Source: a virus (taxonomy: Duplodnaviria > Heunggongvirae > Uroviricota > Caudoviricetes). Taken from it: a DNA stretch of 24,897 bases. Under the pieces are notes generated by a model. That model was not told the origin of the DNA. It did not search any database and was given only the letters and a program-made list of their open reading frames with translations. The stretch covers positions 1-24,897 of IMG/VR virus record IMGVR_UViG_2547132278_000021, one strand, 5' to 3'. This document shows, piece by piece, positions 1 through 22,809 of the stretch (position 1 is the first letter of the stretch; the number at the start of each line of letters is the position of its first letter). The position numbers and the translations under genes are program-made.

Positions 1-447
<447 letters not shown>

Positions 448-448
<1 letters not shown>

Positions 449-2919
449 CAGAATCCCCCAACAGTAAGGCGAGGAATAACGGCAAGAACAGACAGCGGCA
501 ACGGGTCAAGCTGACGGATTCTTACACGTCCGTTTTTGCCCCAGTTACTGTCCAGTTTCACTTCTACTTTTCCGGTAGCGTCATCAACAGGATCATCGTA
601 GAACTCGAATTCACGCTGTGGATATTCGTACCATTTACCGCCGGGCGTAGTCGCCCAGATGCCGCGGCTGGCATTCACAACCAGAGTAACGGACGGGATC
701 ACCTGTTTTTTGTCCAGCAGCGTTTCCTGTCCGTTAATGTTGATATCCAGTGTTTCGAATTCAGCAGTTATTGGCAGGCCGATGTGCACTACAGCCCCCG
801 GTGATTCCAGCGTAACGGCACCTCCGGAAACTACTTTCTGTGGTTCCACGTTCGCATCAGAGAGGATGTTTACGGTCTGTCCTTCAAGATGAGACAGGCC
901 TCCAAATGTCCGGCGCGCCATCTGCCAGTTCGTGGTGGCCACATTCCTGAGGAATGGCGGGACGTTCCTGTTAGCACGAACCACTACAGCGGTATTGCTG
1001 GTTACAGAAATAATGTCGCAACGTAATTCTTTTGACACTTCATCTCCAGTATCAGGAACAGTTCCGGTATAAGGGAACTGTAGTTGCGCGCCGACATCAC
1101 TACTGGTGAAGTACGCACCACCAGAAACACTGATTGTATATTCCGCACGGTAATCCCATTCACCAGAACCACCAGTGATGGTCATCGTTCTGTCAGACGT
1201 ATTTCTTCCATCATAGCTAAGGCCAGAATCAACAAAGAAAGCATCTTCATCGCTGGTAAATAAACGGCTGGACAGTCTCTCGATGTATCTCACTGTTTGC
1301 CCGTTAACGGTTCTGTTAACGACGAAATACACCGCATCTTCATTGCCTTCGCTGATACTGCATGTGCTTTCATATTTTCCGGTACTGGATTGTGGTGCCC
1401 ATGCAAAAACCTGCTGATCACGCAAATAGGTCATCACCAGTAATTTACCGTCATCACGAATGCAGAAGGCGCTGGAGTAAGGGACAATCGAGAAGCACCA
1501 GTCAACAATGCTGTGCTTCTGAAAAAGATGATTGGCAAGGATAGTCAGGTCGTTCCCCTGATAGCCGTCAACATCGAATGAATAGGCCAGATCACGGACA
1601 ACACTGCCTTTCTCCTGGACGAACAGAGCAATATTCGCCACAGCAATTGGTGGGACGTTGCTCGAGCCATTTGATCCCTGAGAGCTGAATGCAAATGATG
1701 ATGGGGTTAACACTTTGTTCTGGTCGCCGGTGATGACGTACTCACCTCCGGAAGTCAGTGCCACCAGCGAACCGACATCAATCAGGTGGCGGATCTCATT
1801 AACCTGACGCCCGGCATAGGTGTAGATAATTCTGTCGTCATCCTGCGTAGGATTGCTTTTGCCAAAATCCTTATAATCCCCGGTACGGCTGGCCCAGATA
1901 GTCTGAGGGAACGCAGTCGATGCGGCGAAGTAAAGACGTTGTTGATAATAAACAACAGTGCCAGGATAACCATTAACACTGTTCCAGGCATATTTAGCCC
2001 ATTTATAGCTGGCATTATCCTCGCCAACTACCTGCGAAGGGATATAGGAAATCACCTCGGCAGTTGCAGTAGTTCCATTTGCAGCAGTGATACGGGCAAT
2101 GCCAAAACCACTGTGCAGATATTCCCACTCAATGCCAGTATCATCATCACCGGATCCGCCCCAGCCATCCCATGATGTGCCTTCTGTATGCGAAGGGCGC
2201 AAAGTGCCTGTTTTGCCTGCTGTAACGGCGCGATAGTAGTTACTGTCTGCACGGCGAATATCGCCAATCGACGTACTCTTACTGGTTTCCCATACCTGCA
2301 CTGAATCCACTGCAGGCTGTTCCAGATAGAACAATTTGCCTACCTGCTCCGCGCCAAAAATAGAGGCGCTTGCCGTTAACGTAATTGTCCCGGTGCTGGC
2401 GCTGGCATAAACCGTCACTGACTCGTCAATATTGATATCTTCAAATGGCCCGTTCTTCGTTACCACATCAACCAGTTGCCAGTTGTCATGCGCATAGCGA
2501 CGCAACTCTTTCGGCGGGTATGCCGGATGAACCAGCGTAAGCACGTCTGCGCTTTGCGTGAATTTAATTCGGAACAGATCGGCTTCAGTATATGGAGTGG
2601 CAATTTCATAAATAACATTGCTGCTGTTCAGCACCAACGCACCATCTTTGATAACGCGCATGTACTGGTGTCCGAACTCCAGAGCATAGGTCTGAACCGT
2701 CGAGAACTGGAACGGGATCAGGCGGCATTTCCGATTTGGGTATTTGGCGGCACCGACAAAACGCGTACCAGGTCGATTCTCAACGCCGCCATACTGCCGC
2801 ACGATAAAGTTATCGCACTTGCGCAATGCCACCTGGTACTTCGCCATGTCGATACGTCCGTACAACGACGGTCCAATCTCACCACCAGCAAAGCTGGGCT
2901 GGATCCAACTGATAGCCAT
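448..2919 (-). CDS. Large virion/tail structural protein (823 aa); by position and size resembles a podovirus tail tube/nozzle protein, the type often annotated 'phage stabilisation protein'
   Basis: Long ORF with ATG at 2919-2917 overlapping the upstream stop (TGATG). Last large gene of the head-tail operon, after a ~200-aa protein, mirroring the T7 gp11/gp12 order. Family assignment is by architecture, not alignment. Confidence 0.6.
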
Positions 2920-3524
2920 CAGGACAACCTCGCAATGGTAAACTCATCAACCGGTGGCTGAGGTTCCTGTGATTCATTCTGGCTATGCGAGCCAGCACTA
3001 AGAATCACGCGATTGTACATATTGAGGGCAAACGTACCGAGGTCTGCATTCCCAGTCAGCGCCATGTTAATGGCTGCCGCAAGACGCCAGGCCAGCGCCT
3101 CCATAAAAATGGCATCAAACATGTTTACATCTGAAACTCGAGAGACATACTTGAGCCATGCCTGCGGCTGGTCTGTGTAGATCAACTTTCCTGTTCCGTT
3201 GGTGTCTGCACCCACTTCGTACTGGACGCGCATTGCTGCTGTTGGATTGCGTACACCAGGAAGCATAATTTCAGTAATGCGCAGACAATCGGACGGATAC
3301 TGGTACGCATATTCCCAGTCAGGCGGTGGATTGTTCGTATCTGCAAGCACCACGCGTTTGGTAGCAAAGTTCCAGTCAAAATCAGAAAGCACAGCATCAC
3401 GGCAGGCCTCAAAGTGCAGTGAACATTCCCCCGCTTCCTTGCTGGCTTCCTTCAGGCTGTTAATGCTGCGGCTATTGCCAATATTGGACAGCGCACGATT
3501 GCAGATCTCTACTACAGAGGCCAT
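2919..3524 (-). CDS. Virion protein (201 aa), candidate tail adaptor/tubular protein A-like by position
   Basis: ORF coupled to both neighbours by overlapping start and stop codons; size and position match the gene preceding the large tail protein in podoviruses. Confidence 0.5.
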   Translation of the reverse strand: MASVVEICNRALSNIGNSRSINSLKEASKEAGECSLHFEACRDAVLSDFDWNFATKRVVLADTNNPPPDWEYAYQYPSDCLRITEIMLPGVRNPTAAMRVQYEVGADTNGTGKLIYTDQPQAWLKYVSRVSDVNMFDAIFMEALAWRLAAAINMALTGNADLGTFALNMYNRVILSAGSHSQNESQEPQPPVDEFTIARLS

Positions 3525-3847
3525 TACTCACCACCATTGCCGTACAGCGTTTCAGCCGCTGATTTTTCTACATCCCCGGAAACAGGAGCGATCGCCATAT
3601 CAGTGATCTGCAGATCGGCGCTGCGATTAACACCATCGTCAGTTTCTCTGGCAGACAGGCCTCGAATAACAGCCTTTGCAGTTATCATCACTTCTGTTCC
3701 GACGCCCTGAGGTTGCGCCTTCAGCTTATTCAATGTGTCGTTATTAAGAGTGATGCACAGCCCCCACGGGTATTCATCGCGAGTTCTGGTTTCTCCGCTC
3801 TCATCCTGGTAGCTGTCAGTGCCGGTTTTGAGGTTTACGAGTTCCAT
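3524..3847 (-). CDS. Hypothetical small virion/head-completion protein (107 aa from ATG 3847)
   Basis: ORF in the structural operon; ATG at 3847 preceded by AGGAG with 5-nt spacing. Track start 3853 is a GTG two codons upstream. Confidence 0.5.
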   Translation of the reverse strand: MELVNLKTGTDSYQDESGETRTRDEYPWGLCITLNNDTLNKLKAQPQGVGTEVMITAKAVIRGLSARETDDGVNRSADLQITDMAIAPVSGDVEKSAAETLYGNGGE

Positions 3848-3897
3848 ATACACTCCTGCAATAAAGGGGCCGAAGCCCCTTGTCTGATTCGCGAGGC

Positions 3898-4233
3898 TTA
3901 CACGCCCAGTTCTTTACGCTTATCTGCGATCTTCTCGCGGAGCGTTTCGGCTTTGGCGTTATGGTGTGGCTTCTCGTTAAAGAGCAATTCGTACTCTTCA
4001 CGGAGCTTATCCAGTTCACCATCATCTGACACATCATTGATGATTTTGGTGCTGGTTGCTGCCATAGACACCTTTCCTGCTACCTTTGCTTTTGCCTGTC
4101 TGGCTGCATCGTTAACAGGTTCCAGTGCGCTACCAGGCTCACCTTCGTATTCGATTTCTGCCCCCTCCGGCCACAGAGTGTTATGGATATGAGAGAGGCG
4201 CAGAACGCGGTATCTTGGTTTCTCACCTGACAT
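3898..4233 (-). CDS. Hypothetical small virion protein (111 aa from ATG 4233)
   Basis: ATG at 4233 preceded by AAGGTGA with 5-nt spacing; track start 4242 is a GTG. Lies between capsid and tail genes. Confidence 0.5.
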   Translation of the reverse strand: MSGEKPRYRVLRLSHIHNTLWPEGAEIEYEGEPGSALEPVNDAARQAKAKVAGKVSMAATSTKIINDVSDDGELDKLREEYELLFNEKPHHNAKAETLREKIADKRKELGV

Positions 4234-4243
4234 CAATATCACC

Positions 4244-4681
4244 TTAACCGGTTACTTTTGAGCGGATCGGATACGGCGTATTGGCATCAACATCAAGACT
4301 GATACCCGCAGTGAATTCGCCAGCCGTTAGTGGGCCAGTTGCGACGGAGTAGTTAACACGCAGATATCGCTGAACACCGGCAGGAACCTTTGCAGAAACA
4401 ACTCGTTTACCTGCTGTCAGGGCGGTCTTTGCCAGTGCACCACTATCATAAATAGTGGTCCATGAGCTGTTATTCTCACTCGTCTGCAACTGGATGTTTA
4501 CAGTTGCCTCACCACTTGCCGTGGCGGCTTCGTTAACCAGCGCCCAAAACTCAAGCGGGTAACCCACGCCGATATCACGACGTTTTCCGTCAATTGGACC
4601 GAGATCGATTACGTCAGTAGAAGCCGCGGTATTCGTAACCGCCTGAGCTTCGGAGAACATCAACAGTTTGTCGGTGATCAT
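4244..4681 (-). CDS. Hypothetical virion protein (145 aa), possible capsid decoration/accessory protein
   Basis: ORF immediately downstream of the major capsid gene; Gly/Thr/Ala/Val-rich composition. Function inferred from position only. Confidence 0.45.
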   Translation of the reverse strand: MITDKLLMFSEAQAVTNTAASTDVIDLGPIDGKRRDIGVGYPLEFWALVNEAATASGEATVNIQLQTSENNSSWTTIYDSGALAKTALTAGKRVVSAKVPAGVQRYLRVNYSVATGPLTAGEFTAGISLDVDANTPYPIRSKVTG

Positions 4682-4732
4682 CTTCTTTCTCCATTAGTGG
4701 GTCTGTTACGACCCACAGGTTAATAACAGGCG

Positions 4733-5725
4733 TTACACCACGCGGGCTTCTGTTTCCAGAAGCGCATCAGTTTCACGGATTGGTACACCACGGAATGAAG
4801 TCCACCACTCGCCTTCTGTCTCTTTTACGCTGATCGCCAGAGATGTTTTCTCCAGAGATTGCAGATCAAGAGCCTGTCCTACAGTGCGGTTCATGTAGAA
4901 CACTGGGCGCCCCATGCCACGGTTTGGAATGCGATGCAGTGCTTTAACCATCAACTTCGCAATATTTGCGGCAGAGGAAGGTTCTGAAAGATTGCTGACA
5001 TCGATGTTTGCAATGCGAACGACATAACGCCAGTCACGCAGAGCAAGTCCGTTATCCCATTTGTAATGGGTACGGTAGCCTTCGTACTTGCCGCCATTAG
5101 CATCTTCCAGTGTCACCTGGCCTTTATCTTCCATCTGAATGCCAGCCTTCTGCCCTTTCGGGAAGATGCCATGCACGGTGTTTTCGCCCCACACCACTAA
5201 CCAGATTGAGGTGTTATCTGTACCCGTGCCACCAGCATCAATGATGTTCTGAGCATTACCCGCAGACAGGCTGGAATAGCGGGATGACAGTCCCATAAAC
5301 TGCTGAGGGTTAACGCTGGAATCACCATAAAACAGCGTCTGCGCCATCTGCTGATTCATCGCTTCAATAAATGCGCGGTCTTCAGACAGGCGGAATTCGG
5401 CGGTATTGCCGTTCAGATCAGCCAGTGACTTATCGACTTCAGCATAGGTTTCCAGCATGCCAACGGAATCGGTTACCTGCACTGTGGTTGATTTGCTTGG
5501 CTGTACTCCATAGTTCAGCAAACGCCAGGTAGCTGAAGGTAAACCAGAACGAATGGTGGTTCGGTGTCCGGTAGGAAGGTTCCCTTCGACAAAAGGCATA
5601 TCCTGAAGGATCGGGTTAGTTTGACCGAGAAGCTCGATAATCTTATCGACTTTCCCGTTTGGATCGACGCGCTTACCCCAGTCAGCCAGCGTTAGCGCAG
5701 TTAAGCCTTTAACAGCCATTGTCAT
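4733..5725 (-). CDS. Major capsid protein (330 aa; start may be the second ATG at 5719)
   Basis: ~36-kDa ORF directly after an acidic scaffold-like gene, in the canonical portal-scaffold-capsid order. GAGAGG Shine-Dalgarno upstream is better spaced for ATG 5719. Confidence 0.7.
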   Translation of the reverse strand: MTMAVKGLTALTLADWGKRVDPNGKVDKIIELLGQTNPILQDMPFVEGNLPTGHRTTIRSGLPSATWRLLNYGVQPSKSTTVQVTDSVGMLETYAEVDKSLADLNGNTAEFRLSEDRAFIEAMNQQMAQTLFYGDSSVNPQQFMGLSSRYSSLSAGNAQNIIDAGGTGTDNTSIWLVVWGENTVHGIFPKGQKAGIQMEDKGQVTLEDANGGKYEGYRTHYKWDNGLALRDWRYVVRIANIDVSNLSEPSSAANIAKLMVKALHRIPNRGMGRPVFYMNRTVGQALDLQSLEKTSLAISVKETEGEWWTSFRGVPIRETDALLETEARVV

Positions 5726-5733
5726 TTCCTCTC

Positions 5734-6429
5734 TTATTTGCCATAGAGCACTTCGGCCGCACTACGCTGGCCTTCATTAACACCGGTGACCATGCCATCT
5801 TCAGACATCGCCTTTCCGATTTTCACGAACGTTTTGACCAGATCAGGGTGATTACCCAGCCCGGTGGTGTTCAGATATTCTTTGAGTTCAGGTGTCCCGA
5901 ACTGGTCAAGCGCACGCTGTGCGGCGCTAAGGTTAGAAATCAACTTGTCGCCACCGATTTCTTTGTCAGCTTTTACATCCGCAGCCCACTGCTCGGTTGT
6001 TTTCTGCCAGGCTTCTGCCTGGCGCTGCTGAACACCTGCCAGAATCTTCGGATAAGCATCAACCAGCTTTTGCGCTTGCTCGTTGGTCAGGTTAAGTTCT
6101 CGCGCCACCGGCTCGAATTCCTTCAACGCTTCTGTATCCAGCTCTACGCCTTCGGCAGCCTGAAACTCGTACTTCTCAGGCGCACCCTCTGGTTTATCGC
6201 CGTCCTTTTTTTCATCCTGCTTATCGTTTTCAGGCTTTTTGTCATCAGCAGGTTTATCGCCATCAGCAACAGGTTGTGGCTTATCACCTTCCTGTTGTGA
6301 TGAATCACCAACTGGAGCAGGGTTATCACCTGCAGGCGCTGACGGTTCTGACGCAGCCGGAGCTGCTCCACCATCGACTGGTTGCTCATTGCAAAGACGG
6401 CGATACAGCAAACGCTCAAATAAATTCAT
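5734..6429 (-). CDS. Scaffolding protein (231 aa from ATG 6429)
   Basis: Highly acidic, low-complexity, D/E/K/P-rich N-terminal half with a helical C-terminus, sitting between portal and capsid. Track start 6435 is a GTG overlapping the upstream TGA; ATG 6429 follows AGGAG. Confidence 0.65.
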   Translation of the reverse strand: MNLFERLLYRRLCNEQPVDGGAAPAASEPSAPAGDNPAPVGDSSQQEGDKPQPVADGDKPADDKKPENDKQDEKKDGDKPEGAPEKYEFQAAEGVELDTEALKEFEPVARELNLTNEQAQKLVDAYPKILAGVQQRQAEAWQKTTEQWAADVKADKEIGGDKLISNLSAAQRALDQFGTPELKEYLNTTGLGNHPDLVKTFVKIGKAMSEDGMVTGVNEGQRSAAEVLYGK

Positions 6430-6431
6430 GC

Positions 6432-6728
6432 TCACTCCTGTTCACTGGCCTCTTTGGCCATCTTCAAATACTGTTCAGGGCAATGCGCCATAACGCGCTG
6501 AAACAGTTCCAGCGCCAGATTGCGTTGCCCCTCATTAAATGCCATTGCCATAGCATCCATCGGAGAGATAGCGGAAAACACCCGGCCTTTCTCCAGCACA
6601 GACCAGACAACGCGACGCCCCTGTTCACTGCTCATGACAAAGCGAATGTCATCAATTTCACGCTGTGCCATGTCACGTTGCTTACGGGCGTTTTCTTCTT
6701 TCAGTTGATCGTCCTCGTAATCTGTCAT
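6432..6728 (-). CDS. Hypothetical 98-aa protein between portal and scaffold
   Basis: ATG 6728-6726 overlaps the portal stop (ATGA coupling); charged helical protein. Confidence 0.55.
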   Translation of the reverse strand: MTDYEDDQLKEENARKQRDMAQREIDDIRFVMSSEQGRRVVWSVLEKGRVFSAISPMDAMAMAFNEGQRNLALELFQRVMAHCPEQYLKMAKEASEQE

Positions 6729-8404
6729 TGTGATTGCCCACCCTGACCACTAACTGCATTCGCCATAGCTGACAAAACACTCGGATCCGAAGTTTTAGCT
6801 TCGCTTAGCGTCTTGGCACCCTGTGCCGCCGCCATTCCCATCGCCATCATTTGTTGCTGCTGTTGCTGCTGTGCCCGTTGCTGGCGAGCCTGCTCAACCT
6901 GTTCCTGCGGAACAATGACGGTTGGAGACACTCCGGACATATCAGCGAATGCATCGATCGCCTGATCAACATTGAGTTTGTCGAGAGCTTCTGGTTTCGC
7001 TTGCGCAAGTTGACCAATGAAGTTGACCGTAGACGCCAGACTGGACAGGCCGATAGACTTCTGCGCCTGAGCCATGACGGAAATGTATTCGACCTTCAGG
7101 GGCATACCTTCCATCGCGTCAGGCGGTGGCGGCAGCATGTTTTTACGCACCATCATCGAGAAAGCGCGGTCAATGAGAGGATTAAGACATTCGTCGTTCA
7201 GACGCTCCAGAACCGGCCCCAACATCAGAAGTTTTTCTTCTTTCATTTCGATCACCGCTTCAACAGGCATCGAGCGGGTATTGATGTTCTGCAACATCAT
7301 GAACAGATCGACAAAGTAGGCGCTGTTAATGATTTGACGGGTGTCCTGAATGTCTGCCACCAAATCTGCTGTACTGGGGTTAACCAGATAAGCAGGCCTG
7401 AAACCATCCTGACCAGTAATCTGATCGATATACGTGATGTCGCCAGGAAGAAGGGAGGCACGCTGATTCTTGAGGGAAGTCGGAGCAACCATCGGCGGAT
7501 TGGTGGCTTTATCAATCAACTGCGACTTGCGCTTCTGGAGAAGCTGCAATGCCTTAACAGGTCCAAGCGCCAGCATACCCGGGCATGATGATCCATAAAC
7601 ATCTTCGCCGTTAACTTCCCAGCGCGGAGCCATAATTGGAAACTCATCGAATCCGGACTCGCGCAACAACTTGTCGTTATCGCCACCAACCTCGTAATAA
7701 ACCGATTTGAATGGCTTGTTCTTGCTATCCAGCTTCGATGTATCGCGGTCAATGTTCGGGTAAACCGAATGCATCACTTCAATCCACTTCTCGTAGGTGC
7801 CGCTTTCCCACATGCTTTTTACGGATTCGCTGACGTTATTTAGCCCGAACTCCTGAACAAGCTGACGAACAGTCATAGAGAACTTGCGAAAACAGGTGTC
7901 CACACTGCCACGAGGTGAGTTAGCCAGGTAGTAACTGCCTATCGGGAATGGCATTGTGCGAATGATGTCCTCGTCATCCTCCAGCACTGCCATTGCACCA
8001 GTGCTGTATGTGCCGAGGCTTCCGTATAACTGCGGCAGCGACTGATAGAGATTCGACTTATTGAACATATCGTTCATGCGGTTCTGCACCGCCTCAAGCC
8101 ACAACTTAACAGGGCCATAATCCATCATTTCAGGATCTGGCGTAGCCAGGCGAAACCACGGACGCGCGGGGCTTGTGATGCCTGACATCATGCCGCTGGC
8201 GAGAGTGCGCGCCGCCATAGTCCCGGTCGAATCAATAATGCGTGTATTGCGTCGATCGTTACGGTTGACCTCAGAAGTCAGAAAGCGGGAACCACGTGGG
8301 TTGATGTAATCACTCAACTCGCGCCAGTGCGGCTCGAACGACTGACGCTCGCTTTCAAGTTGTGCGAACTGTTTGTTCAATCGCTCTTTAGTTGTTTCCG
8401 CCAT
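6725..8404 (-). CDS. Portal (head-to-tail connector) protein, podovirus type (559 aa)
   Basis: Size, position after terminase, and a Gln-rich C-terminal tail (QQRAQQQQQQQMMAMGMAAAQGA...) reminiscent of T7-type connectors. Start context CCGGAGTCATTGAA-ATG. Confidence 0.75.
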   Translation of the reverse strand: MAETTKERLNKQFAQLESERQSFEPHWRELSDYINPRGSRFLTSEVNRNDRRNTRIIDSTGTMAARTLASGMMSGITSPARPWFRLATPDPEMMDYGPVKLWLEAVQNRMNDMFNKSNLYQSLPQLYGSLGTYSTGAMAVLEDDEDIIRTMPFPIGSYYLANSPRGSVDTCFRKFSMTVRQLVQEFGLNNVSESVKSMWESGTYEKWIEVMHSVYPNIDRDTSKLDSKNKPFKSVYYEVGGDNDKLLRESGFDEFPIMAPRWEVNGEDVYGSSCPGMLALGPVKALQLLQKRKSQLIDKATNPPMVAPTSLKNQRASLLPGDITYIDQITGQDGFRPAYLVNPSTADLVADIQDTRQIINSAYFVDLFMMLQNINTRSMPVEAVIEMKEEKLLMLGPVLERLNDECLNPLIDRAFSMMVRKNMLPPPPDAMEGMPLKVEYISVMAQAQKSIGLSSLASTVNFIGQLAQAKPEALDKLNVDQAIDAFADMSGVSPTVIVPQEQVEQARQQRAQQQQQQQMMAMGMAAAQGAKTLSEAKTSDPSVLSAMANAVSGQGGQSQ

Positions 8405-8653: not shown

Positions 8654-8730
8654 TTACCAATTTAACCACATATGATTTATTTATCGTAGATAGTTGACAT
8701 TTAACGCACAAATTATTACCTTTCAGGTAA
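8654..8730. promoter_or_regulatory. Operator-like site TTACC-TTTCA-GGTAA (8716-8730) with consensus -35 TTGACA (8694-8699) and a degenerate upstream half-site (8654-8668) at the cassette spacing
   Basis: Perfect 15-bp dyad identical in form to the immunity-region operators. Flank AAATTATTACC matches the flank of the pL-like proximal operator. Transcription direction not resolved. Confidence 0.45.
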
Positions 8731-9052: not shown

Positions 9053-9129
9053 GTGGCATTAGCTCAGTTGGACAGAGCAACCGCCTTCTAAGCGGTTGGT
9101 CGCAGGTTCGAATCCTGCATGCCACGCCA
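9053..9129 (+). tRNA. tRNA-Arg (anticodon TCT, decodes AGA)
   Basis: 77-nt cloverleaf folded by hand: acceptor GTGGCAT/ATGCCAC, D stem GCTC/GAGC, anticodon stem ACCGC/GCGGT with loop CTTCTAA (U33, TCT, A37), T arm GCAGG-TTCGAAT-CCTGC, discriminator G, encoded CCA. Confidence 0.9.
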
Positions 9130-9214: not shown

Positions 9215-9292
9215 ACAGCAGGACGCCATTGCGATGACTTCATGCTGTAAACCCGTACAGCCACGGAAGGCATAACTCATTGCTTCCAGTTC

Positions 9293-9327: not shown

Positions 9328-9653
9328 ATGAACGACCAGCAAATCGAAAAAGAAATCGTTGAGAAAGGCAAAACCGCTCCGCGAGTTACGCCTCAATATA
9401 TCGAAAGCATCATTCTTGAAGAGCATTTCTTTACTGCTTAGACGGCATTCGTGCTGCCAATATGGGCGTTGGCGATTCATGGACAGCGCATAAATCTACA
9501 GACCTCCTGACTTTCTGCGTATTGGTACTGAAGAATGGCTTCACCGTCACCGGAGAGAGTGCCTGTGCAAGTCCGGAAAATTTTGATGCAGAAATTGGTC
9601 GGAAGATTGCCCGGCAGAATGCTGTAAACAAAATCTGGATGCTTGAAGGTTAA
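9328..9653 (+). pseudogene. Gp49-like small phage protein gene (Phage_gp49_66-type) disrupted by a frameshift
   Basis: ATG 9328 with AGGTGAG Shine-Dalgarno encodes MNDQQIEKEIVEKGKTAPRVTPQYIESIILEEHFFTA then TAG at 9439-9441. The adjacent frame continues from 9441 (DGIRAANMGVGDSW...LKNGFTVTGESACASPENFDAEIGRKIARQNAVNKIWMLEG) to TAA 9651-9653; the two frames join with a 2-nt offset. Confidence 0.5.
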
Positions 9654-9730: not shown

Positions 9731-9773
9731 ATCCTCACCAGAGGATATCTCCGTCATTATCCCCGCTAACGGA

Positions 9774-11249
9774 TTAAGCATAGGGATCGTAATCTGTAAT
9801 GGCCTTGCCTTGCTGGTTCTGCTGCCCGGGAATTCGCAGGCGCTTTGACACCGGGAAAGCAAACGTCAGCAGTAGCGCATCGCCTTTACCAGGCGAACGC
9901 CCAAGTCGTTCTTTGATATCTTCCTTCGGTTCGATAACGATTTTACCGTCCACGCGAACTTTGTACTCTGCCGCCGACAGGTCGTCTGCAGTTTCCTGGT
10001 CATCCAGCATGCCGCCTAGCCTCAGCCATGTCTTGCATGAGTTGAACATCTCCCCACGCTTGTTGAGCATCTGCGGGTCAGTAGACGCGCCACCGAACGG
10101 AACAAGTTGCCATGTACGACCCCAGCCGTCACCGATTGACTTCAAACCGGTTCCGTAACCGAAGTCGATGAACACCGCGTCAGCCTGATACTGGTCTTCA
10201 AAGTCAGCGATACGCTTCGCCATAATCAGATCGTCGGTAGTCTTGTTGCCAGTCCACAGCACCTTACTGTGCAGCCCCTGCCGCAGGTATATCACAGCGT
10301 CATCAACGCCTGAGTATGCCGGGTCAACGCCGATTATCACCGGAGCATGTGCAACCTGCGCAGCGGTTACCACCCGTTTCATTGCCTCATCAGTAAGACC
10401 GGTAGGGATAAACTGCAATTCAGATGCATCAGGGAATATGCCGCGCACACGGACCTTCACGAAGTCGCTGTCCTCGCCATGGTCTTCAATCCATTTTTGA
10501 ATCTGCTCTTTGTTCGTTCCTTCGACGGTACGGCTGTCGATCTGCTTCGTAACCCAGCGGTGTTTATATTTGCGGAAGCATTCCCTGAAACGCCCGGAGT
10601 TACGCGTAGGGTTTCCGAACGCTACCCAGATGATTTCCGTGTCTTCGTCCGTCAGCGCACCCTCGGCCACCTCCCAAACTTTATCAGCAATGTTTGACGC
10701 CTCATCGAATACCACGATGATCCGCTTACGCTCGTTGTGCAGGCCGGCGAACGCCTCGGTGTTGTGCTCAGACCACGGGATTGCGTCAGCGCGCCAGCGT
10801 TTATCGTGGCCCGGATCATTGCTGTACATGGCTGTTGCTGGGGTAGAGAACCAGTCTTTCGTGATGGACAGGTTTGCCCACTTAATCACTTCAGGCCATG
10901 TCTTGGTACGCAGCTGATTTTCGGTGTTGGCAGTGACTACTGCTTTGCAGTCTTCGCAGGTTGACATACCCCAGTTCAGGAGCATGGAAATACCCGCACT
11001 TTTCCCTATGCCGTGGCCTGAAGAAACGGCAATCATCAGCGGCTGATGACGGGTTTCTGGGTTCCTGAGGTGCTCACCAACCGTATCGAGCATCCATCTT
11101 TGCCAGTTTCTTGGTCCGGATGCATGCGCCAGCTCTGTACCCTCTTCCCCCCACGGGAACGCATAGAGGGCATAGCCAAGCGGATCGTGAGTGAACCCTG
11201 CTATATCCTCGATCAACTGCTCTTCAGGAGATAACGATGTATCTGTCAC
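9774..11249 (-). CDS. terL: Terminase large subunit (491 aa)
   Basis: N-terminus SPEEQLIEDIAGFTHDPLGYALYAFPWGE..., a Walker-A-like GHGIGKSAG and an acidic VVFDEASNI stretch, then a nuclease-sized C-terminal domain. GTG start at 11249 overlaps the terS stop (GTGA). Confidence 0.85.
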   Translation of the reverse strand: MTDTSLSPEEQLIEDIAGFTHDPLGYALYAFPWGEEGTELAHASGPRNWQRWMLDTVGEHLRNPETRHQPLMIAVSSGHGIGKSAGISMLLNWGMSTCEDCKAVVTANTENQLRTKTWPEVIKWANLSITKDWFSTPATAMYSNDPGHDKRWRADAIPWSEHNTEAFAGLHNERKRIIVVFDEASNIADKVWEVAEGALTDEDTEIIWVAFGNPTRNSGRFRECFRKYKHRWVTKQIDSRTVEGTNKEQIQKWIEDHGEDSDFVKVRVRGIFPDASELQFIPTGLTDEAMKRVVTAAQVAHAPVIIGVDPAYSGVDDAVIYLRQGLHSKVLWTGNKTTDDLIMAKRIADFEDQYQADAVFIDFGYGTGLKSIGDGWGRTWQLVPFGGASTDPQMLNKRGEMFNSCKTWLRLGGMLDDQETADDLSAAEYKVRVDGKIVIEPKEDIKERLGRSPGKGDALLLTFAFPVSKRLRIPGQQNQQGKAITDYDPYA

Positions 11250-11839: not shown

Positions 11840-11884
11840 CATAACCACCGTGGTAATAGTTACCGTTGTGGTAATAGTACCATG

Positions 11885-11965: not shown

Positions 11966-12299
11966 CTATTAATTTCGTTTCATGCCAGCCTTTAGTCACC
12001 CAGCATTGCGAGTCACCATTACACGGGCATGAATTAACTGGAACTCTCTCGCCGCACTTACCGCAACATTTTCTGCTGATCGATTTTATACGCCCGCGCA
12101 CGCGTGCATCATCCTGGCGGATCAGTAACGCTATATACTCACCAAATTCGTAAGGCGCACGCCCGGGGCGACGCGTGGCACAGTTACGCTCCAGCATTTC
12201 AATTTCCTGAGCATCAAGCACAATTTCCAGCTTACGCACACCAGATGCAGCTTGTCTGGCTCTCTGAGCGGCTTTGCGCTCTGCTGCTGATTTAGCCAT
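11961..12299 (-). CDS. Hypothetical Cys-rich protein (112 aa) with basic Arg/Ala-rich N-terminus
   Basis: ATG at 12299. N-terminus [24 protein letters not shown]-terminus [22 protein letters not shown] suggests metal binding. Sits immediately upstream of the palindrome, terminator and terminase genes. Confidence 0.5.
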
Positions 12300-12633
12300 T
12301 CTGATTTTCCTGCATCATGAGAAATACAATCATGGCGGCGCGGAGAGGTCTGGTATCAAATATTGGTCTTACGCCTTTTGCATCAACACACCATTCAGTT
12401 AACTGGTCTAAGATAGAAATCCTGTGTTTCTCAATAATCGGCCATGAGGCGCTAGGATCATTGCAGTAGTCAGGTAAATGGTTTAATGGCTCAAAAGTTG
12501 TATCAGTATTTCCGTAATACCATTTGTTGGTGTTATTCCCTGATGTTTCCGGTTTACATGCCCAAAGGCCTTTAAAAATTATGTCTCCTACCATTCTGTT
12601 AATTTCAAAATCACTTAACTGTGAATAGTCCAT
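12292..12633 (-). CDS. NinX-like (DUF2591-type) phage protein, 113 aa
   Basis: ATG 12633 overlaps the upstream TGA (ATGA) and follows AGGAGGTG. Family assignment from memory of the [13 protein letters not shown]-terminus; tentative. Confidence 0.5.
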
Positions 12634-13547
12634 CACTTCACCTCCTGCGGCGGTTCTGGTAGAGGCATCCAGTGGGTTACACCGCCAATTGGCTCATCGT
12701 CGTCGTACTCCAATGCGGCTATATAGAACCCGTCACGACGAGAATAAGAAATCCCGGACATTACAATGCCATCCGAAACAACAATAATGTCACCCGTTTC
12801 TTTCGGCATTCGCTCACTACAGCTTATCCAGGCATCCAGAGTTACCGGAACTTGTGGAATGGCTGTCTGCTCTCGAACGTCATTAGGCGCTATAGGTTCT
12901 GCTGCCAACTGACTGGCATATTTGTTAATGGTAACGATAAGCTCTTGCTCAGCCTCATCCAGACAATCACCGATACCTCGCCTGTCACCGTCAAAATCAT
13001 CGAAATCGGCACGAATCCTGGCAACCTTCAGGATTGCGGACAACACCTCACTAGGAATTGCCGGATAGTTGGTTGACGTTTCCGCGATTTCCCGAAAATT
13101 ATTGGTTGACGAATTCTTATTTTCCCGAAAGTTTCCGGACTGAAGCATGGCGGCGCGGCAGGCGTTCCAGCCAGCTGTTCGCCCAAGCGCGTAAACTTCA
13201 GATGGCTCAAGATAATCAATGTCATGCCCGTCCTCATCGTCGTTCTCAGGTAATGCAGCAGGTACTACCGGTACTGGCGGAGCGGCGTAGACTTCAATAA
13301 TCCCATTATCAATAGGCCATTCTCCATCCTTGAGATAGTCACTTGTGCCGTCAACTTGCTGTTCAGCAATGTGGAATGCACCAACTGGCTCTGCTGCCAG
13401 CGATGCCAATGCGATTTCCAAAACAGCAATATCCATTTTATATGTGCGGATGATGTCATGGTCGATTGTGCCTGGTATGCACAGTCTCTGTGCTTCAATA
13501 GTCTCCTCTGCGTGAGTTATTAACTGCTCTCTGGTAAAAGTGGTCAT
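12633..13547 (-). CDS. Hypothetical phage protein (304 aa) with C-terminal DUF551-like motif
   Basis: Ends ...[17 protein letters not shown], characteristic of DUF551 C-termini. Strong AAGGAG Shine-Dalgarno 6 nt before ATG 13547. Confidence 0.6.
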
Positions 13548-15597: not shown

Positions 15598-15674
15598 TTA
15601 CCTCTAAGGTAATTAAAAACCACATAAGACACGAAATCAATAGATCTAAGAATATTTTGTTACCTATCAGGTAA
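15598..15674 (-). promoter_or_regulatory. Internal promoter-operator cassette: operators TTACC-TCTAA-GGTAA (15598-15612) and GTTACC-TATCA-GGTAAC (15659-15675) flanking -10 TTTAAT (15612-15617) and -35 TTGATT (15635-15640)
   Basis: Two perfect dyads 62 bp apart centre to centre, the same spacing and layout as the pL-like cassette; 17-bp spacer between the hexamers. Confidence 0.6.
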
Positions 15675-16512: not shown

Positions 16513-17357
16513 GCTTCAGGGCTGTTCCAGTGCGGAACGTTGTTATCAGGTAATGTTGATTGCTTCTGTCTGCTAATCTGCAGCCGCCTTGCCAGCTTCT
16601 GCTCCCACTGTGCCTGATGGTATGCCTTACCCTCAGCCATCCAGTAAATTCTGAACTCTGCAAGTTCCTGTGCCGTTGGCAGACTGTCCAGGTAGATTCC
16701 CTGCAATGAGCTTTTCCGAAGAAAGTCATCTGATGGCTGCCATTGTTCATGCATGACAAATTTGCCTAATTGCCCTGGCCCACCAGGAGGAACAAAGTTA
16801 TTCATCACGGCGTTGTTTGCGCCGGGGTCATGAGGCACAGAATCCCCGGTTTTTGTCCTGCTCTCCCTCTCTTGGTTAAATGACTGGTTATATGACTGGT
16901 TCTGGATCCCGTTTTTGGGATCATTCAACATCCCGTTTTTGGGATCATTCAACATCCCGTTTTTGGGATCATTCAACATCCCGTTTTTGGGATCATTCAA
17001 CATCCCGTTTTTGGGTATATTCCCGTTTTCGGGAACATTACCGTTTTCGGGTTCATTACCCCCTTCCCGGTTGCCTTTAATGTTCCCTTTTTTGGTTATA
17101 TTAAGAGAGAAAACCCGTACTCTTTTCGTCGCCCCCTTTCTCTCTCCGGTATCTGAAATAAGCCCCATTTTCATGAGCGATATAAGCCCGGCCTGCACGG
17201 TTTTTTTATTCAGGCAAGTGTCTTTAACGAGGCGTTCTATGCTGGGGTAGCAGAGGTTATATTCATCGGCTCTGTCAGCCATCGAGAGCAGTATGAGCTT
17301 TAATGACGAGCTACCTGGATCTGTCTCCCAGGCCCAATCTGTTGCATGTCTGCTCAT
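16494..17357 (-). CDS. Lambda O-like replication initiator (287 aa) with internal origin repeats
   Basis: N-terminal winged-helix-like region (LKLILLSMADRADEYNLCYPSIERLVKDTCLNKKTVQAGLISL), central PKNGMLND repeats encoded by the iterons, and a C-terminal domain. GGAGA Shine-Dalgarno before ATG 17357. Confidence 0.8.
   Translation of the reverse strand: MSRHATDWAWETDPGSSSLKLILLSMADRADEYNLCYPSIERLVKDTCLNKKTVQAGLISLMKMGLISDTGERKGATKRVRVFSLNITKKGNIKGNREGGNEPENGNVPENGNIPKNGMLNDPKNGMLNDPKNGMLNDPKNGMLNDPKNGIQNQSYNQSFNQERESRTKTGDSVPHDPGANNAVMNNFVPPGGPGQLGKFVMHEQWQPSDDFLRKSSLQGIYLDSLPTAQELAEFRIYWMAEGKAYHQAQWEQKLARRLQISRQKQSTLPDNNVPHWNSPEAWEDFL
16906..17001. repeat. Candidate replication origin iterons: four perfect 24-bp direct repeats (ATCCCGTTTTTGGGATCATTCAAC), with degenerate copies to ~17060
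   Basis: Seen directly in sequence. Each unit carries an ATCCC...GGGAT dyad. Location inside the initiator gene mirrors lambda ori. Confidence 0.75.
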
Positions 17358-17652: not shown

Positions 17653-17667
17653 GTTACCTTTGAGGTA
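17653..17667. promoter_or_regulatory. Imperfect operator TTACC-TTTGA-GGTAC directly after the cro-distal terminator
   Basis: One mismatch from the TTACC-N5-GGTAA dyad. Confidence 0.4.
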
Positions 17668-17678
17668 CGAATAGATAT

Positions 17679-17723: not shown

Positions 17724-17954
17724 TCATGAGTAGAAGAAGTATGCCAGTTCTGCTTTTGAGCGCAGCCATTGTCTTGTTTTACAGGCTTTAAAAAGCCCAT
17801 TCATCAATACCTTACCTGGCATTTTGCGCTTACCTGTTAAGTGAGTCTGGATATAGTGACTCGTCGTTCCGGCTTCCTGTGCGAAGGCTTCACGCTCATC
17901 CGGAGTAAGTGCAAGCCAGTGCTTTTTGAAATCGAAATGTCCGTTATCGCTCAT
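17724..17954 (-). CDS. Cro/CII-like HTH regulator (76 aa), first gene of the early-right operon
   Basis: Divergent from the repressor gene. Helix-turn-helix-like stretch EAFAQEAGTTSHYIQTHLTGKRKMP; FDF...AFAQ resembles CII-type regulators of 186-like phages (from memory). Confidence 0.55.
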   Translation of the reverse strand: MSDNGHFDFKKHWLALTPDEREAFAQEAGTTSHYIQTHLTGKRKMPGKVLMNGLFKACKTRQWLRSKAELAYFFYS

Positions 17955-17990
17955 AGCTATTGCCTGATATTTATTTCAGATAATAAATAT

Positions 17991-18053
17991 TCACCCATAA
18001 GGTAACAAAAATCAAGGATAGTTACCTATGAGGTGCATTTACCTGTTGGGTAA
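17991..18053. promoter_or_regulatory. Immunity-region operator cluster (OR-like): TCACC-CATAA-GGTAA (17991-18005), TTACC-TATGA-GGTGC (18022-18036), TTACC-TGTTG-GGTAA (18039-18053)
   Basis: Three dyads in the 154-bp divergent intergenic region between the cro-like and repressor genes. Candidate cro promoter hexamers TTGTTA/TATTAT overlap the first site. Confidence 0.65.
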
Positions 18054-18108: not shown

Positions 18109-18693
18109 ATGAAAAGTATCCAGGACGTCCGCAGGCAAAATCTCAACGACTTGATCGACCGTGAATTCAATGGTGTTCAGACGCGGATGGCAGAAAAACT
18201 TGGAACTCAGGCAAATCTGGTAAACCGCTGGGCTCTTGGCAAGAAGGTTATCGGCGACCAGGTTGCGCGAAAAATTGAAGCTGCCGCCAATAAACCACGT
18301 AACTGGCTTGATATCGATCGCTCGCTTTCTCAAGAAGGTTTTCAGCCTGTCGGCCCGAGTGATATAGGTCAGCTGGCTGCTCACAACCTGGAACGCTGGA
18401 TGAGCGAAAGCCGCGACCTTTCAACGCAGGGAAAACTACACCGCGCATCCGGCGTCGCCCAGGTGACAATCAGCCGCCTGTTAAACAATGAGGTCAGCGT
18501 TTCCATTTCCACCCTGGAGAATGTTGCATCCGCATTCGGGCGTCATGGCTATGAATTACTGATTCACCCGCACGACCCTGCGACTATCAACTATGACCGC
18601 TCGCGCTACGCATTGTTACCCGAAACCGAGAAAGCAAAGATCGAAAGTTACATTGAATTTGTCATCAACCAGAACGAAAAAAGCAAACAATAA
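18109..18693 (+). CDS. Phage immunity repressor candidate: tandem double-HTH (XRE-type) protein with no LexA/S24-like cleavage domain (194 aa)
   Basis: Two HTH-like segments (TRMAEKLGTQANLVNRWALGKK and LHRASGVAQVTISRLLNNEV); divergent from the early-right operon; followed by a strong terminator. Confidence 0.65.
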   Translation: MKSIQDVRRQNLNDLIDREFNGVQTRMAEKLGTQANLVNRWALGKKVIGDQVARKIEAAANKPRNWLDIDRSLSQEGFQPVGPSDIGQLAAHNLERWMSESRDLSTQGKLHRASGVAQVTISRLLNNEVSVSISTLENVASAFGRHGYELLIHPHDPATINYDRSRYALLPETEKAKIESYIEFVINQNEKSKQ

Positions 18694-18713: not shown

Positions 18714-18739
18714 AAGCCGCCTCATGGCGGCTTTTTTAT
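18714..18739 (+). terminator. Intrinsic terminator after the repressor gene
   Basis: GCCGCC-TCAT-GGCGGC followed by TTTTTT. Confidence 0.7.
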
Positions 18740-18750
18740 TGCCGAAAAGA

Positions 18751-18827
18751 TTACCTTGCAGGTAATTTTTTTAACTCATATCTATTGACATCAAACCAGA
18801 TACGCATAATTATTACCCCAACGGTAA
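18751..18827 (+). promoter_or_regulatory. pL-like promoter-operator cassette: operators TTACC-TTGCA-GGTAA (18751-18765) and TTACC-CCAAC-GGTAA (18813-18827) flanking -35 TTGACA (18785-18790) and -10 AATTAT (18808-18813)
   Basis: Consensus -35, 17-bp spacer; the proximal operator begins at the last base of the -10; operator centres 62 bp apart. Confidence 0.65.
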
Positions 18828-18846: not shown

Positions 18847-19008
18847 ATGCAGTGGAAAATCATCAACGGTTGGTACTGCGTTACTGCATGCGGATTCATG
18901 AGCTGGAAGTTCCGCACCTTACAGGAAGGCATTAAGTGGGCTTTCGTCAGCAAAGAAGCTCGCGATGTGGCCAACGATAACGAGATATGGGAGGAGGTTA
19001 GCAAATGA
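18847..19008 (+). CDS. Small Trp-rich protein (53 aa), first gene of the early-left operon; not in the ORF track
   Basis: ATG 18847 with GAGGT Shine-Dalgarno 8 nt upstream; stop TGA overlaps the next gene's ATG (ATGA). Translation MQWKIINGWYCVTACGFMSWKFRTLQEGIKWAFVSKEARDVANDNEIWEEVSK. Confidence 0.5.
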   Translation: MQWKIINGWYCVTACGFMSWKFRTLQEGIKWAFVSKEARDVANDNEIWEEVSK

Positions 19009-20039
19009 GTGAATTATCAATCATCGAAATCACACCAGACATGGCACCAAGAATTTACGTTGAAAAAGGGCTGGAAAAGTTTCTCGAGCAGATCCGTGAA
19101 GGTGTTAATGAAGTGCCTGACATTAGCACAGACAAAGGCAGAAAGCGCATTGCATCTCTGGCTGCGAAGGTTTCAAGAAGTAAAACAGCGGTAGAAAAAC
19201 CAGGACGTGATTATCTTAAACGCCTGAAAGAACAGCCGAAAGTAGTTGAAGCAGAGTTACGACGCTTCGTAACCGAATGCGATCGGCTTCGTGATGAAGT
19301 ACGCCGCCCACTCACCGAGTGGGAAAATGCTGAGAAATTACGCACTGAAGCACTGCAACAACGCCTGACAAATTTGCGAGCACTAGCTGACGTGATCGAT
19401 CTCTCCGGAAACTACTTGCCATCATCTGACATTCAGGAACGAATTCAAGAGGCTAAATCAGTAGCACTTGATGAAAGTTGGCAGGAGTACGCAGCAGAAG
19501 CTGGAGTAGCCAAGGATTCAACCATCCAGAAACTGGAAGAATCACTCGCAGTAGCTCAAAAACGCGAGCATGAAGCCGCTGAGCTGGAGCGACTTCGCAA
19601 AGAAGCGGAGGAAAAAGCGCGCATTGAGCGAGAAGAGAATATCCGCCGGGAAGCTGCTGAACAGGCCAGGCTCGAAGCTGAACAAAAAGCGAAAGCTGAA
19701 ATTGAGGCTGCGGCACGCCTGGCGGCGGAAGAAAAAGCACGTGCTGAAGTAGCAGAACGTCAGCGAATTGAAGCAGAGCAGCGTGCACGACGCCAAAAAG
19801 AAGAAGCCGTTGCCGAGGAACGCCGACGCCAAGAGGCGGCAGAAAAAGCCCGCCTTGACGAACAGAAGCGTATCGCCGACGAAGAAGCGCGCCGAGCTGC
19901 AGATAAAGAGCATCGCCGTACCGTTAACCGCAGAGTAATCGCAGATCTGATAGCCCAAGGCATACCCGAAGAATTCGCGCAGAAAGCAATGTTGGCTATC
20001 GCTGGCGGCAAAGTGCAGGACGCGTATATCAAATATTGA
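19005..20039 (+). CDS. Hypothetical coiled-coil protein (344 aa) of the early/recombination operon
   Basis: Strong GGAGGAGG Shine-Dalgarno; ~110-aa N-terminal domain, long E/A/R/K-rich heptad region, short C-terminal domain. Confidence 0.6.
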   Translation: MSELSIIEITPDMAPRIYVEKGLEKFLEQIREGVNEVPDISTDKGRKRIASLAAKVSRSKTAVEKPGRDYLKRLKEQPKVVEAELRRFVTECDRLRDEVRRPLTEWENAEKLRTEALQQRLTNLRALADVIDLSGNYLPSSDIQERIQEAKSVALDESWQEYAAEAGVAKDSTIQKLEESLAVAQKREHEAAELERLRKEAEEKARIEREENIRREAAEQARLEAEQKAKAEIEAAARLAAEEKARAEVAERQRIEAEQRARRQKEEAVAEERRRQEAAEKARLDEQKRIADEEARRAADKEHRRTVNRRVIADLIAQGIPEEFAQKAMLAIAGGKVQDAYIKY

Positions 20040-20046
20040 GGTGGGT

Positions 20047-20346
20047 ATGAACGTTAATCAGCAGAAAAATCTTCAAAAAATCATGCTGGCATTCGACAAG
20101 GACTACCGCCTGTCAGAACAGCTATATGACCGACAAGTTGAACTGATCGATAGCATCCGGCTTCATCAACTGGCCTCAACTTTTGACGCTGTAACAGGCA
20201 AAGGAGTTCGCCAGGAAGTGCTGGAGGCAGCTAAAGACAGCCCTGAGTTCGAAGAACTGATGGATGCCTACCGGCGCGAGGCAATGGCAATTATCGCCCG
20301 CTGGGATCTGGCGGATCGGATTGATGGGCAGAGGGAAGCGGCATGA
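20047..20346 (+). CDS. Hypothetical protein (99 aa from ATG 20047)
   Basis: ATG follows GAGGTGGGT; stop overlaps the RecE-like start (ATGA). Track start 20041 is a GTG. Confidence 0.5.
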   Translation: MNVNQQKNLQKIMLAFDKDYRLSEQLYDRQVELIDSIRLHQLASTFDAVTGKGVRQEVLEAAKDSPEFEELMDAYRREAMAIIARWDLADRIDGQREAA

Positions 20347-22151: not shown

Positions 22152-22400
22152 ATGAAAGGTGCATTAGGTAAGAAGGAACTCCTGGCGGTGGTGCCACTGT
22201 CATGGAGCACTATCGACCGTATGGAGCGCGCAGGGGAATTTCCTAAACGCTGGTATATCACCGATAAACGCTGCGCATGGAACCGTGACGAAGTTGAGCG
22301 TTGGCTTGATGAACGTCAAGCAGCAAGCCCGGCAGAGTTCCAGGGTAAAAAACCTCCTGTTCAGCAACGTGTATATCGTCCCGTGAGCAACGCTGCATGA
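22152..22400 (+). CDS. AlpA/Xis-family DNA-binding protein (putative excisionase), 82 aa
   Basis: LLAVVPLSWSTIDRMERAGEFPKRWYITDKRCAWNRDEVERWL fits the AlpA/MerR-type excisionase pattern; GAGG Shine-Dalgarno. Confidence 0.65.
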   Translation: MKGALGKKELLAVVPLSWSTIDRMERAGEFPKRWYITDKRCAWNRDEVERWLDERQAASPAEFQGKKPPVQQRVYRPVSNAA

Positions 22401-22509: not shown

Positions 22510-22809
22510 GTGAGAAAGTTAAGCCGACTTGAAAAATATCACATGAACAAGGTTTCAATGCGCAGCCCTTCAAAGGTTGTTGCCGTTACTCCTGCGGCGA
22601 TAGAGATCGAAAAACGCGCGATTGAAAGAGAGAAAAAAGGGCAGTTCCGCATTGCCGCCCACCTTTGGCTTCAGTGTATGGATGTTGCTTCTGGTGATGT
22701 TGAGCGTGCAAGGATCGCGGTTCGCAGGGACCAATGTATCACAAAAGGTAACGGCCTTCGCCGTGGCGACTATAGCGGAATAGGATGTTGCGGGGTGGTT
22801 TATGACTAA
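22510..22809 (+). CDS. ANR-like small regulator (start uncertain: GTG 22510, ATG 22543 or ATG 22558)
   Basis: Pattern G.F..AA.LW.......E.AR..A.RRD.C resembles small ANR-family proteins (from memory); 3' end overlaps the MT-A70 start. Confidence 0.4.
   Translation: MRKLSRLEKYHMNKVSMRSPSKVVAVTPAAIEIEKRAIEREKKGQFRIAAHLWLQCMDVASGDVERARIAVRRDQCITKGNGLRRGDYSGIGCCGVVYD

Follow-up and report, generated by a model that had tools for sequence, protein, structure and literature searches.

The 194-residue product of the gene at 18109–18693 is the true immunity repressor of an E. coli prophage of the phiV10/epsilon15 type. We have studied this gene within a stretch of 24,897 nucleotides (the window), and we hold it highly likely that its product, Rep, is a repressor of the Uetakevirus Rep type, which is not cleaved and is switched off by Ant, an antirepressor under the control of LexA. 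Over 77–87% of its length, the window is ~97% identical to the Escherichia phages phiv142-3, PAS61, ZX5, TL-2011b and HEMP4, and identity to phiV10 spans shorter stretches; all of these named relatives belong to the genus Uetakevirus (epsilon15-like). The gene order of the window agrees with that of SPC32H. The repressor gene and the parts of its protein are the following:

18109–18693, plus strand: rep, immunity repressor, 194 amino acids, open reading frame with an ATG start
Rep residues ~1–70: N-terminal HTH DNA-binding domain, followed by a linker
Rep residues ~89–155: HTH_3-like middle domain
Rep residues ~156–194: putative C-terminal segment for oligomerisation and Ant docking

In Pfam, HTH_3 is found at residues 106–147 of Rep (E=1.2e-9) and passes the curated cut-off, while a weaker Cro/YdaS-type HTH at residues 21–61 (E=3e-4) stays under it. 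Residues 1–76 (E about 1e-10 to 1e-11) and 98–192 match PHROG families of repressors and regulators. The AlphaFold2 model, built with 34 homologues as input (mean pLDDT 68.5, with low confidence at 62–83, the linker, and at 157–166), is all-alpha, with bundles at 4–59 and 86–151 and a C-terminal helix at 172–193. When this model was compared by Foldseek with the PDB, the entries of SPC32H Rep (5D50/5D4Z) ranked first and generic XRE-type HTH domains came next. At the level of sequence, the chain named Repressor in the SPC32H Rep-Ant complex (PDB 5D50_A) matches residues 1–190 of the 194 with E=3.5e-42, and residues 92–198 of SPC32H Rep (PDB 5D4Z) match with E=3.6e-20; the identity between the two repressors is 43% overall, with 54% for the DNA-binding domain, 33% for the middle domain and 46% for the C-terminal part. 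As summarised in PMC9986798, the second HTH-like segment of the solved homologue is a middle dimerisation domain, and its last ~40 residues make up a domain, named CAD or TetDloop, that serves tetramerisation and the binding of Ant. Judged by analogy with these domain roles, Rep is more than two HTH domains, and it would form tetramers and bind Ant. As far as sequence can tell, Rep is an SPC32H-type Rep, since it agrees with that family in every feature that can be checked within the window.

The assignment as immunity repressor, which the original prediction had already made from the letters of the DNA, holds because the gene is divergent from a cro-like gene, is flanked by operators, and has a 99.5%-identical counterpart in ZX5, ORF21, which represses. 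The repressors of phiV10 and vB_EcoP_ZX5 are both identical to Rep at this level and thus are essentially the same protein; that of phiV10 is labelled “putative transcriptional repressor”, and the orthologues in SPC32H and epsilon15 carry the annotation rep or repressor. In ZX5, overexpression of ORF21 abolished free phage and cut endolysin mRNA by 99.99% and holin mRNA by 99.97%, a block of lytic transcription (PMC9782041). The cro-like gene opens the rightward early operon and lies in the position of SPC32H_042. Around it and rep, and further along the window, we found the following elements:

17724–17954, minus strand: cro-like regulator, 76 amino acids, open reading frame matching PHROG 35 “transcriptional repressor” (E=5.6e-13)
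17980–18008, minus strand: predicted PR promoter for cro, TTGTTA-17-TATTAT, from a consensus scan only
17991–18005: OR operator nearest cro, TCACCCATAAGGTAA, one mismatch, between the -35 and -10 of predicted PR
18022–18036: middle OR operator, weak, TTACCTATGAGGTGC, two mismatches, from reading of the sequence
18039–18053: OR operator nearest rep, TTACCTGTTGGGTAA, perfect
18714–18733, plus strand: intrinsic terminator behind rep, a GC-rich stem of 8 bp and then a run of T
18751–18765: OL operator, TTACCTTGCAGGTAA, 5' of the predicted PL -35
18785–18813, plus strand: predicted PL promoter, TTGACA-17-AATTAT, 10/12 in a consensus scan
18813–18827: OL operator, TTACCCCAACGGTAA, sharing its first base with the end of the predicted PL -10 and spanning the expected transcription start
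17654–17668: operator-like site just 3' of the terminator after cro
15598–15612 and 15660–15674: two perfect palindromes between genes, behind replication gene P
11842–11856 and 11860–11874: operator pair just 5' of the small-terminase gene, after a terminator
8716–8730: operator palindrome without mismatch, lying where the portal operon and the tRNA-Arg/Gp49 unit diverge

The palindrome TTACC-N5-GGTAA, counted with up to one mismatch, occurs at 10 sites in the window, where chance would give 0.43, and 100 shuffles never yielded as many as 10; the two-mismatch site at 18022, read from the sequence, comes in addition to this count. From that site to the next one the distance is 17 bp, as in the OR of SPC32H (34390/34407/34437). 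The predicted PL would serve the leftward early operon, which starts at 18847 and includes exonuclease, RecT, xis-like and other genes. Away from the early promoters, the pair at 15598/15660 has a spacing of 62 bp, equal to that of OL, and syntenic sites in SPC32H, phiv142-3 and epsilon15; the pair at 11842/11860 is syntenic to a protein_bind site called “repressor” in epsilon15, and the site at 8716 to the epsilon15 site at 2931–2947. More generally, the operator motif stands at syntenic places in SPC32H and phiv142-3, and the GenBank record of epsilon15 annotates them as repressor-binding. The dispersed operators are real, yet they are not new, having already been recorded in that entry. A sigma-70 consensus scan at the operators gave promoter matches only at PR and PL and none at the dispersed sites. 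For the operators away from PR and PL we infer a role from the homologue, in which case Rep would probably repress later transcription units directly as well.

Together with the genes around them, these sites form an immunity region like that of lambda, here in the genome of a podovirus. On the minus strand, cro is followed by O/DnaT-like and lambda-P-like replication genes, nin-type genes, and then terminase, portal and capsid genes. On the plus strand, PL is followed by genes for a PD-(D/E)XK exonuclease, RecT, AlpA-like and PerC-like proteins and a methylase, and then by an oppositely oriented integrase gene. The PL operon opens with three genes (18847–20346, plus strand) for proteins of 53, 344 and 101 amino acids; Pfam assigns none of them to a family, and their only PHROG matches are to groups without a known function (phrog_898, 1376 and 856); the central region of the 344-residue protein is highly charged and probably a coiled coil. 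Inside the O/DnaT-like gene, four tandem 24-bp repeats (TGGGATCATTCAACATCCCGTTTT, 16916–17007) encode four NGMLNDPK repeats and are probably the iterons of the origin, as in lambda O. A tRNA-Arg gene (anticodon TCT, 9053–9129, plus strand) runs opposite to the terminase and portal genes that enclose it, an arrangement also seen in SPC32H, epsilon15 and ZX5. Co-oriented with it, and again opposite to the late genes, is a gene of the Gp49/Sf6 gp66 family (PF13876, 9328–9653, plus strand), which is split into reading frames of 37 and 63 amino acids by a divergent middle segment with a stop codon; the same gene is intact, with 118–123 amino acids, in two related prophages, one of them that of E. 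coli 3908.

How such a repressor could be lifted is best seen in SPC32H. Kim and Ryu reportedly found in 2013 that SPC32H Rep is not cleaved in the SOS response, and that its Ant is structurally distinct from the antirepressors known earlier. In that phage, ant is annotated at 19676–19936, between the tail genes and the tailspike gene, and is preceded by a LexA box, TACTGTATGTTTATACAGTG. SPC32H Rep has been crystallised in complex with Ant (PDB 5D50), and the full-length homology of our Rep to this protein supports the view that induction needs an antirepressor acting in trans, which the original prediction had named beside some other route. Searched by tblastn, an Ant homologue is present in 35 phage records, against 36 with a full-length Rep; these are essentially one set, and every phage relative with a full-length Rep has an Ant-type sequence except one. 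The Ant of the phiV10-like E. coli phages shares ~87% of its residues with that of SPC32H, and its match to PDB 5D50_E has E=1.4e-46. A LexA box stands 37 bp 5' of the ant start codon in phiv142-3, phiV10, ZX5, Tyrion, epsilon15 and SPC32H, and a one-mismatch variant of it precedes ant in a Klebsiella phage. A Rep operator is found ~90 bp 5' of ant in 6/7 phages, with a one-mismatch variant in phiV10. Furthermore, the box at ant is the sole strong LexA box in three complete relatives. Among complete E. coli genomes, rep is present in 536/5426 and the ant locus in 528/5426 (~10% each).

According to the summary in PMC9638917, the SPC32H repressor binds DNA as a tetramer, which is broken when an Ant tetramer engages two of its dimers; in the account given in PMC7380047, once LexA has cleaved itself, an Ant acts on the repressor through protein-protein interaction and inhibits it. 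Carried over from the homologue to the prophage in the window, the sequence of events would be that (i) the Rep tetramer binds the TTACC-N5-GGTAA palindromes and represses the early units, (ii) Rep stays uncleaved after DNA damage, (iii) self-cleavage of LexA derepresses the small ant gene, which would lie beside the tailspike gene and outside the window, and (iv) tetrameric Ant binds the C-terminal part of Rep, so that the Rep tetramer would be split to dimers and released from DNA.

The antirepressor need not be the small Ant alone. In phiV10-like phages, larger “anti-repressor” proteins are encoded just 3' of ant, and their C-terminal domain is 38–40% identical to small Ant; the N-terminal domains joined to it in such proteins are of the Bro-N, AntA or ANT-N kind. 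Orf8 of phiv142-3 (locus 2073–2729) has an AntA N-terminal domain and a C-terminal segment 40% identical to Ant, while ZX5 ORF4 (locus 2071–2766) and phiV10p23 join a Bro-N domain to an Ant-like C-terminal domain; residues 150–226 of ORF4 match PDB 5D50_E with E=1e-13. Overexpression of ORF4 lowered the prophage titre ~1000-fold (PMC9782041), and the Ant-like domain probably explains this loss of lysogeny. In E. coli 3908, the small ant (9746–9885 of the locus) ends after ~35 codons, with its LexA box and the Rep operator upstream of it retained. It is followed by a co-oriented Bro-N::Ant-like gene and then by a P22 immI-like arc/ant region; two Ant-like fusion genes (10150–10836 and 12010–12954) remain downstream of the intact LexA box. 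We regard it as possible, if rather doubtful, that the working antirepressor of phiV10-type phages is one of these larger Bro-N/AntA proteins, or also one of them, rather than the small Ant or the small Ant only. At 87% identity, the small Ant is close to the proven antirepressor of SPC32H, and it keeps its LexA box in 6/6 enterobacterial relatives checked, whereas the fusions are absent from SPC32H and epsilon15, and the effect of ORF4 is partial and was measured on overexpression only. In any case, a larger antirepressor would complement control of Rep by a LexA-regulated Ant and not exclude it.

Based on these fusions, we would tentatively suggest, as something somewhat unlikely to hold in full, that the Ant fold is a portable module, that Rep is open to several inputs, and that an Ant could induce other Uetakeviruses, or prophages broken by an insertion sequence, in trans. 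If this were true, one input to Rep would be driven by the SOS response and others would not, which resembles the cross-talk of the Gifsy prophages. Between E. coli and Salmonella Uetakeviruses, Ant is 87% identical and Rep 43%, and the operator core TTACC-N5-GGTAA is common to both. Because Ant is far more conserved than Rep, its action across Uetakeviruses is conceivable, and its conservation together with the common operator core raises the possibility, from sequence comparison, of cross-induction or partial cross-immunity.

The window itself, as was originally noted, shows no antirepressor gene. SPC32H Ant, searched by tblastn in six frames over the whole window, gave a best E of 2.8, and Pfam found no Ant, AntA, Bro-N, KilA-N or S24 domain in 29 of its open reading frames, which are all candidate genes minus seven in the structural block at 448–8404. 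A search for LexA boxes, put forward at the time as a further check, likewise found no good one: CTGT-N8-ACAG with up to one mismatch has 8 matches in the window against 7.9 expected. The two sites with a perfect core, at 4703 and 9245, share no more than 9 and 12 positions, respectively, with the consensus of 20, and their centres are rich in G and C; both sequences recur in the prophage of E. coli 3908 and in phiv142-3, without a counterpart at the same places in SPC32H or epsilon15. We do not take them for working SOS boxes. We also considered the Gp49-family gene at 9328–9653, near the site at 9245, as a hidden antirepressor and rejected it: its family, PF13876, has no relation to Ant, and the gene is broken in the window.

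In phiv142-3 coordinates, the ant of the relatives lies ~10 kb past position 1 of the window, beside the tailspike gene. The window is the first 24.9 kb of draft contig AELB01000019.1 (GCA_000166555.2) and is 100% identical over 12,919 bp to the locus with which it was compared. At its very start is an insertion sequence:

1–306, plus strand: 3' end of IS100kyp (istB, IS21 family), 100% identical to other copies

The window holds no tail, ant, tailspike or lysis part because the contig starts inside this IS100 element. The element truncates a 154-residue virion gene, downstream of 448–2919, to 54 amino acids (284–448), and this truncation coincides with the end of the contig. The insertion would thus break the prophage between its virion genes and the expected place of ant and leave the half with Rep and its operators intact; the prophage may have been split by IS100 and be defective. 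Since ant is truncated in E. coli 3908, an intact ant is not to be assumed for the prophage of the window either. One could go further and suppose that the prophage is a defective remnant, in which Rep is only a factor of superinfection immunity or an orphan regulator without any route of induction in its host. The virion gene cut at 284–448, the broken contig and the interrupted Gp49-family gene all speak for this, but all remaining genes of the window are intact, with ~97% identity to their counterparts in viable phages, the missing part of the prophage may sit across the insertion on another contig, and an Ant from another resident Uetakevirus could act in trans. We therefore think it less probable that Rep has lost all means of induction, although the idea deserves some weight.

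Could Rep, instead of being switched off by Ant, be cleaved in spite of all this? The original prediction had described two HTH segments without a LexA/S24-like C-terminal domain, and Pfam, PHROG, AlphaFold2 and Foldseek have borne this out. Both features that define self-cleaving proteins of the S24 type, the C-terminal peptidase domain and the scissile dipeptide, are missing from Rep: a Pfam scan of its 194 residues found no Peptidase_S24 at E<=1, and neither Ala-Gly nor Cys-Gly occurs anywhere in them. The AlphaFold2 model has no beta-rich domain, and no S24 structure is among the Foldseek matches to the model. A cryptic S24 fold, which by the terms of the original prediction would have told against it, is thus seen neither in the Pfam scan, nor in the model, nor in the structural matches. 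The homologues of Rep (n=86), from Escherichia, Citrobacter, Serratia, Raoultella and other enterobacteria, are all of 235 amino acids or less (190–235 for the full-length ones), and therefore an extra S24 domain would not fit in any of them. Taken together, the lack of an S24 domain and of a cleavage dipeptide and the all-alpha fold make RecA-stimulated self-cleavage as unlikely as had been thought. That Rep hides a divergent LexA/CI-like self-cleaving module or falls to some other protease, with an antirepressor needless, is very improbable: we found no support for it, its sole opening is the low confidence of the model at 62–83 and 157–166, beyond the first HTH the protein is wholly helical and can be aligned to 5D4Z residue for residue, and inhibition of the repressor by Ant after LexA self-cleavage is summarised in PMC7380047. 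Finally, the window does encode other small DNA-binding proteins (cro-like at 17724–17954, AlpA-like at 22152–22400 and PerC-like at 22510–22809), but it is extremely improbable that one of them is the real immunity repressor and 18109–18693 an accessory regulator, as the position, the divergence from cro and the flanking operators of the latter are all as expected, its orthologues in SPC32H and epsilon15 are annotated rep or repressor, and ZX5 ORF21 has experimental support.

The closest known system is thus the Rep/Ant pair of SPC32H (Kim and Ryu, 2013, J Virol 87:11775; Kim et al., 2016, PNAS 113:E2480; PDB 5D4Z and 5D50), which is alike in full-length homology, three-part architecture, position in the genome, Uetakevirus genome type and TTACC-N5-GGTAA core at syntenic sites, and whose Ant is 87% identical to that of the close relatives of the window, with the LexA box at -37. 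There are also clear differences. The two Rep proteins are only 43% identical, OL has two palindromes in the window and three in SPC32H, ant is not in the window, and the E. coli relatives have extra Bro-N/AntA::Ant-like fusion genes, which SPC32H lacks. The study of ZX5 tested the Bro-N protein ORF4 as an antirepressor; the small Ant homologue is unmentioned there and annotated as hypothetical (PMC9782041). In epsilon15, the major repressor gp38 (AY150271.2) is homologous to Rep with 43% identity, and palindromes are annotated upstream of terS, of the portal operon, of gp19 (the Ant homologue) and at OL, as well as after the replication genes; this phage differs in its Salmonella host and in its replication and moron genes. 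Gifsy-1/2/3 (Lemire et al., 2011; PMC3121763) and the CI/Tum pair of phage 186 similarly combine a non-cleavable repressor with a small inactivator repressed by LexA. Unlike in the case of SPC32H, Pfam and PHROG scans brought out no family relationship to the Gifsy or 186 proteins, and the likeness is one of mechanism only. With the lambda CI/LexA family, Rep shares an N-terminal HTH, the position of an immunity repressor and divergent PR/PRM and PL under operators, but it lacks both the S24 domain and the Ala-Gly site, and would not undergo cleavage stimulated by RecA; it would oligomerise through an HTH-like domain and a short C-terminal strand-helix element.

In conclusion, our results place the repressor of this prophage in a family whose behaviour is known. 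The repressor, its non-cleavage, its operators and the LexA-controlled antirepressor were already described for Uetakevirus between 2013 and 2016, with crystal structures; the mechanism is published, a near-identical protein has been tested in E. coli phage ZX5, and the discovery value of our analysis is therefore small. Its practical value is one of annotation, as RefSeq calls rep no more than a “helix-turn-helix domain-containing protein” and leaves ant a “hypothetical protein”. Recognising the Rep/Ant pair, together with the Ant-like domain in Bro-N “antirepressors”, would sharpen the prediction of SOS inducibility for prophages.
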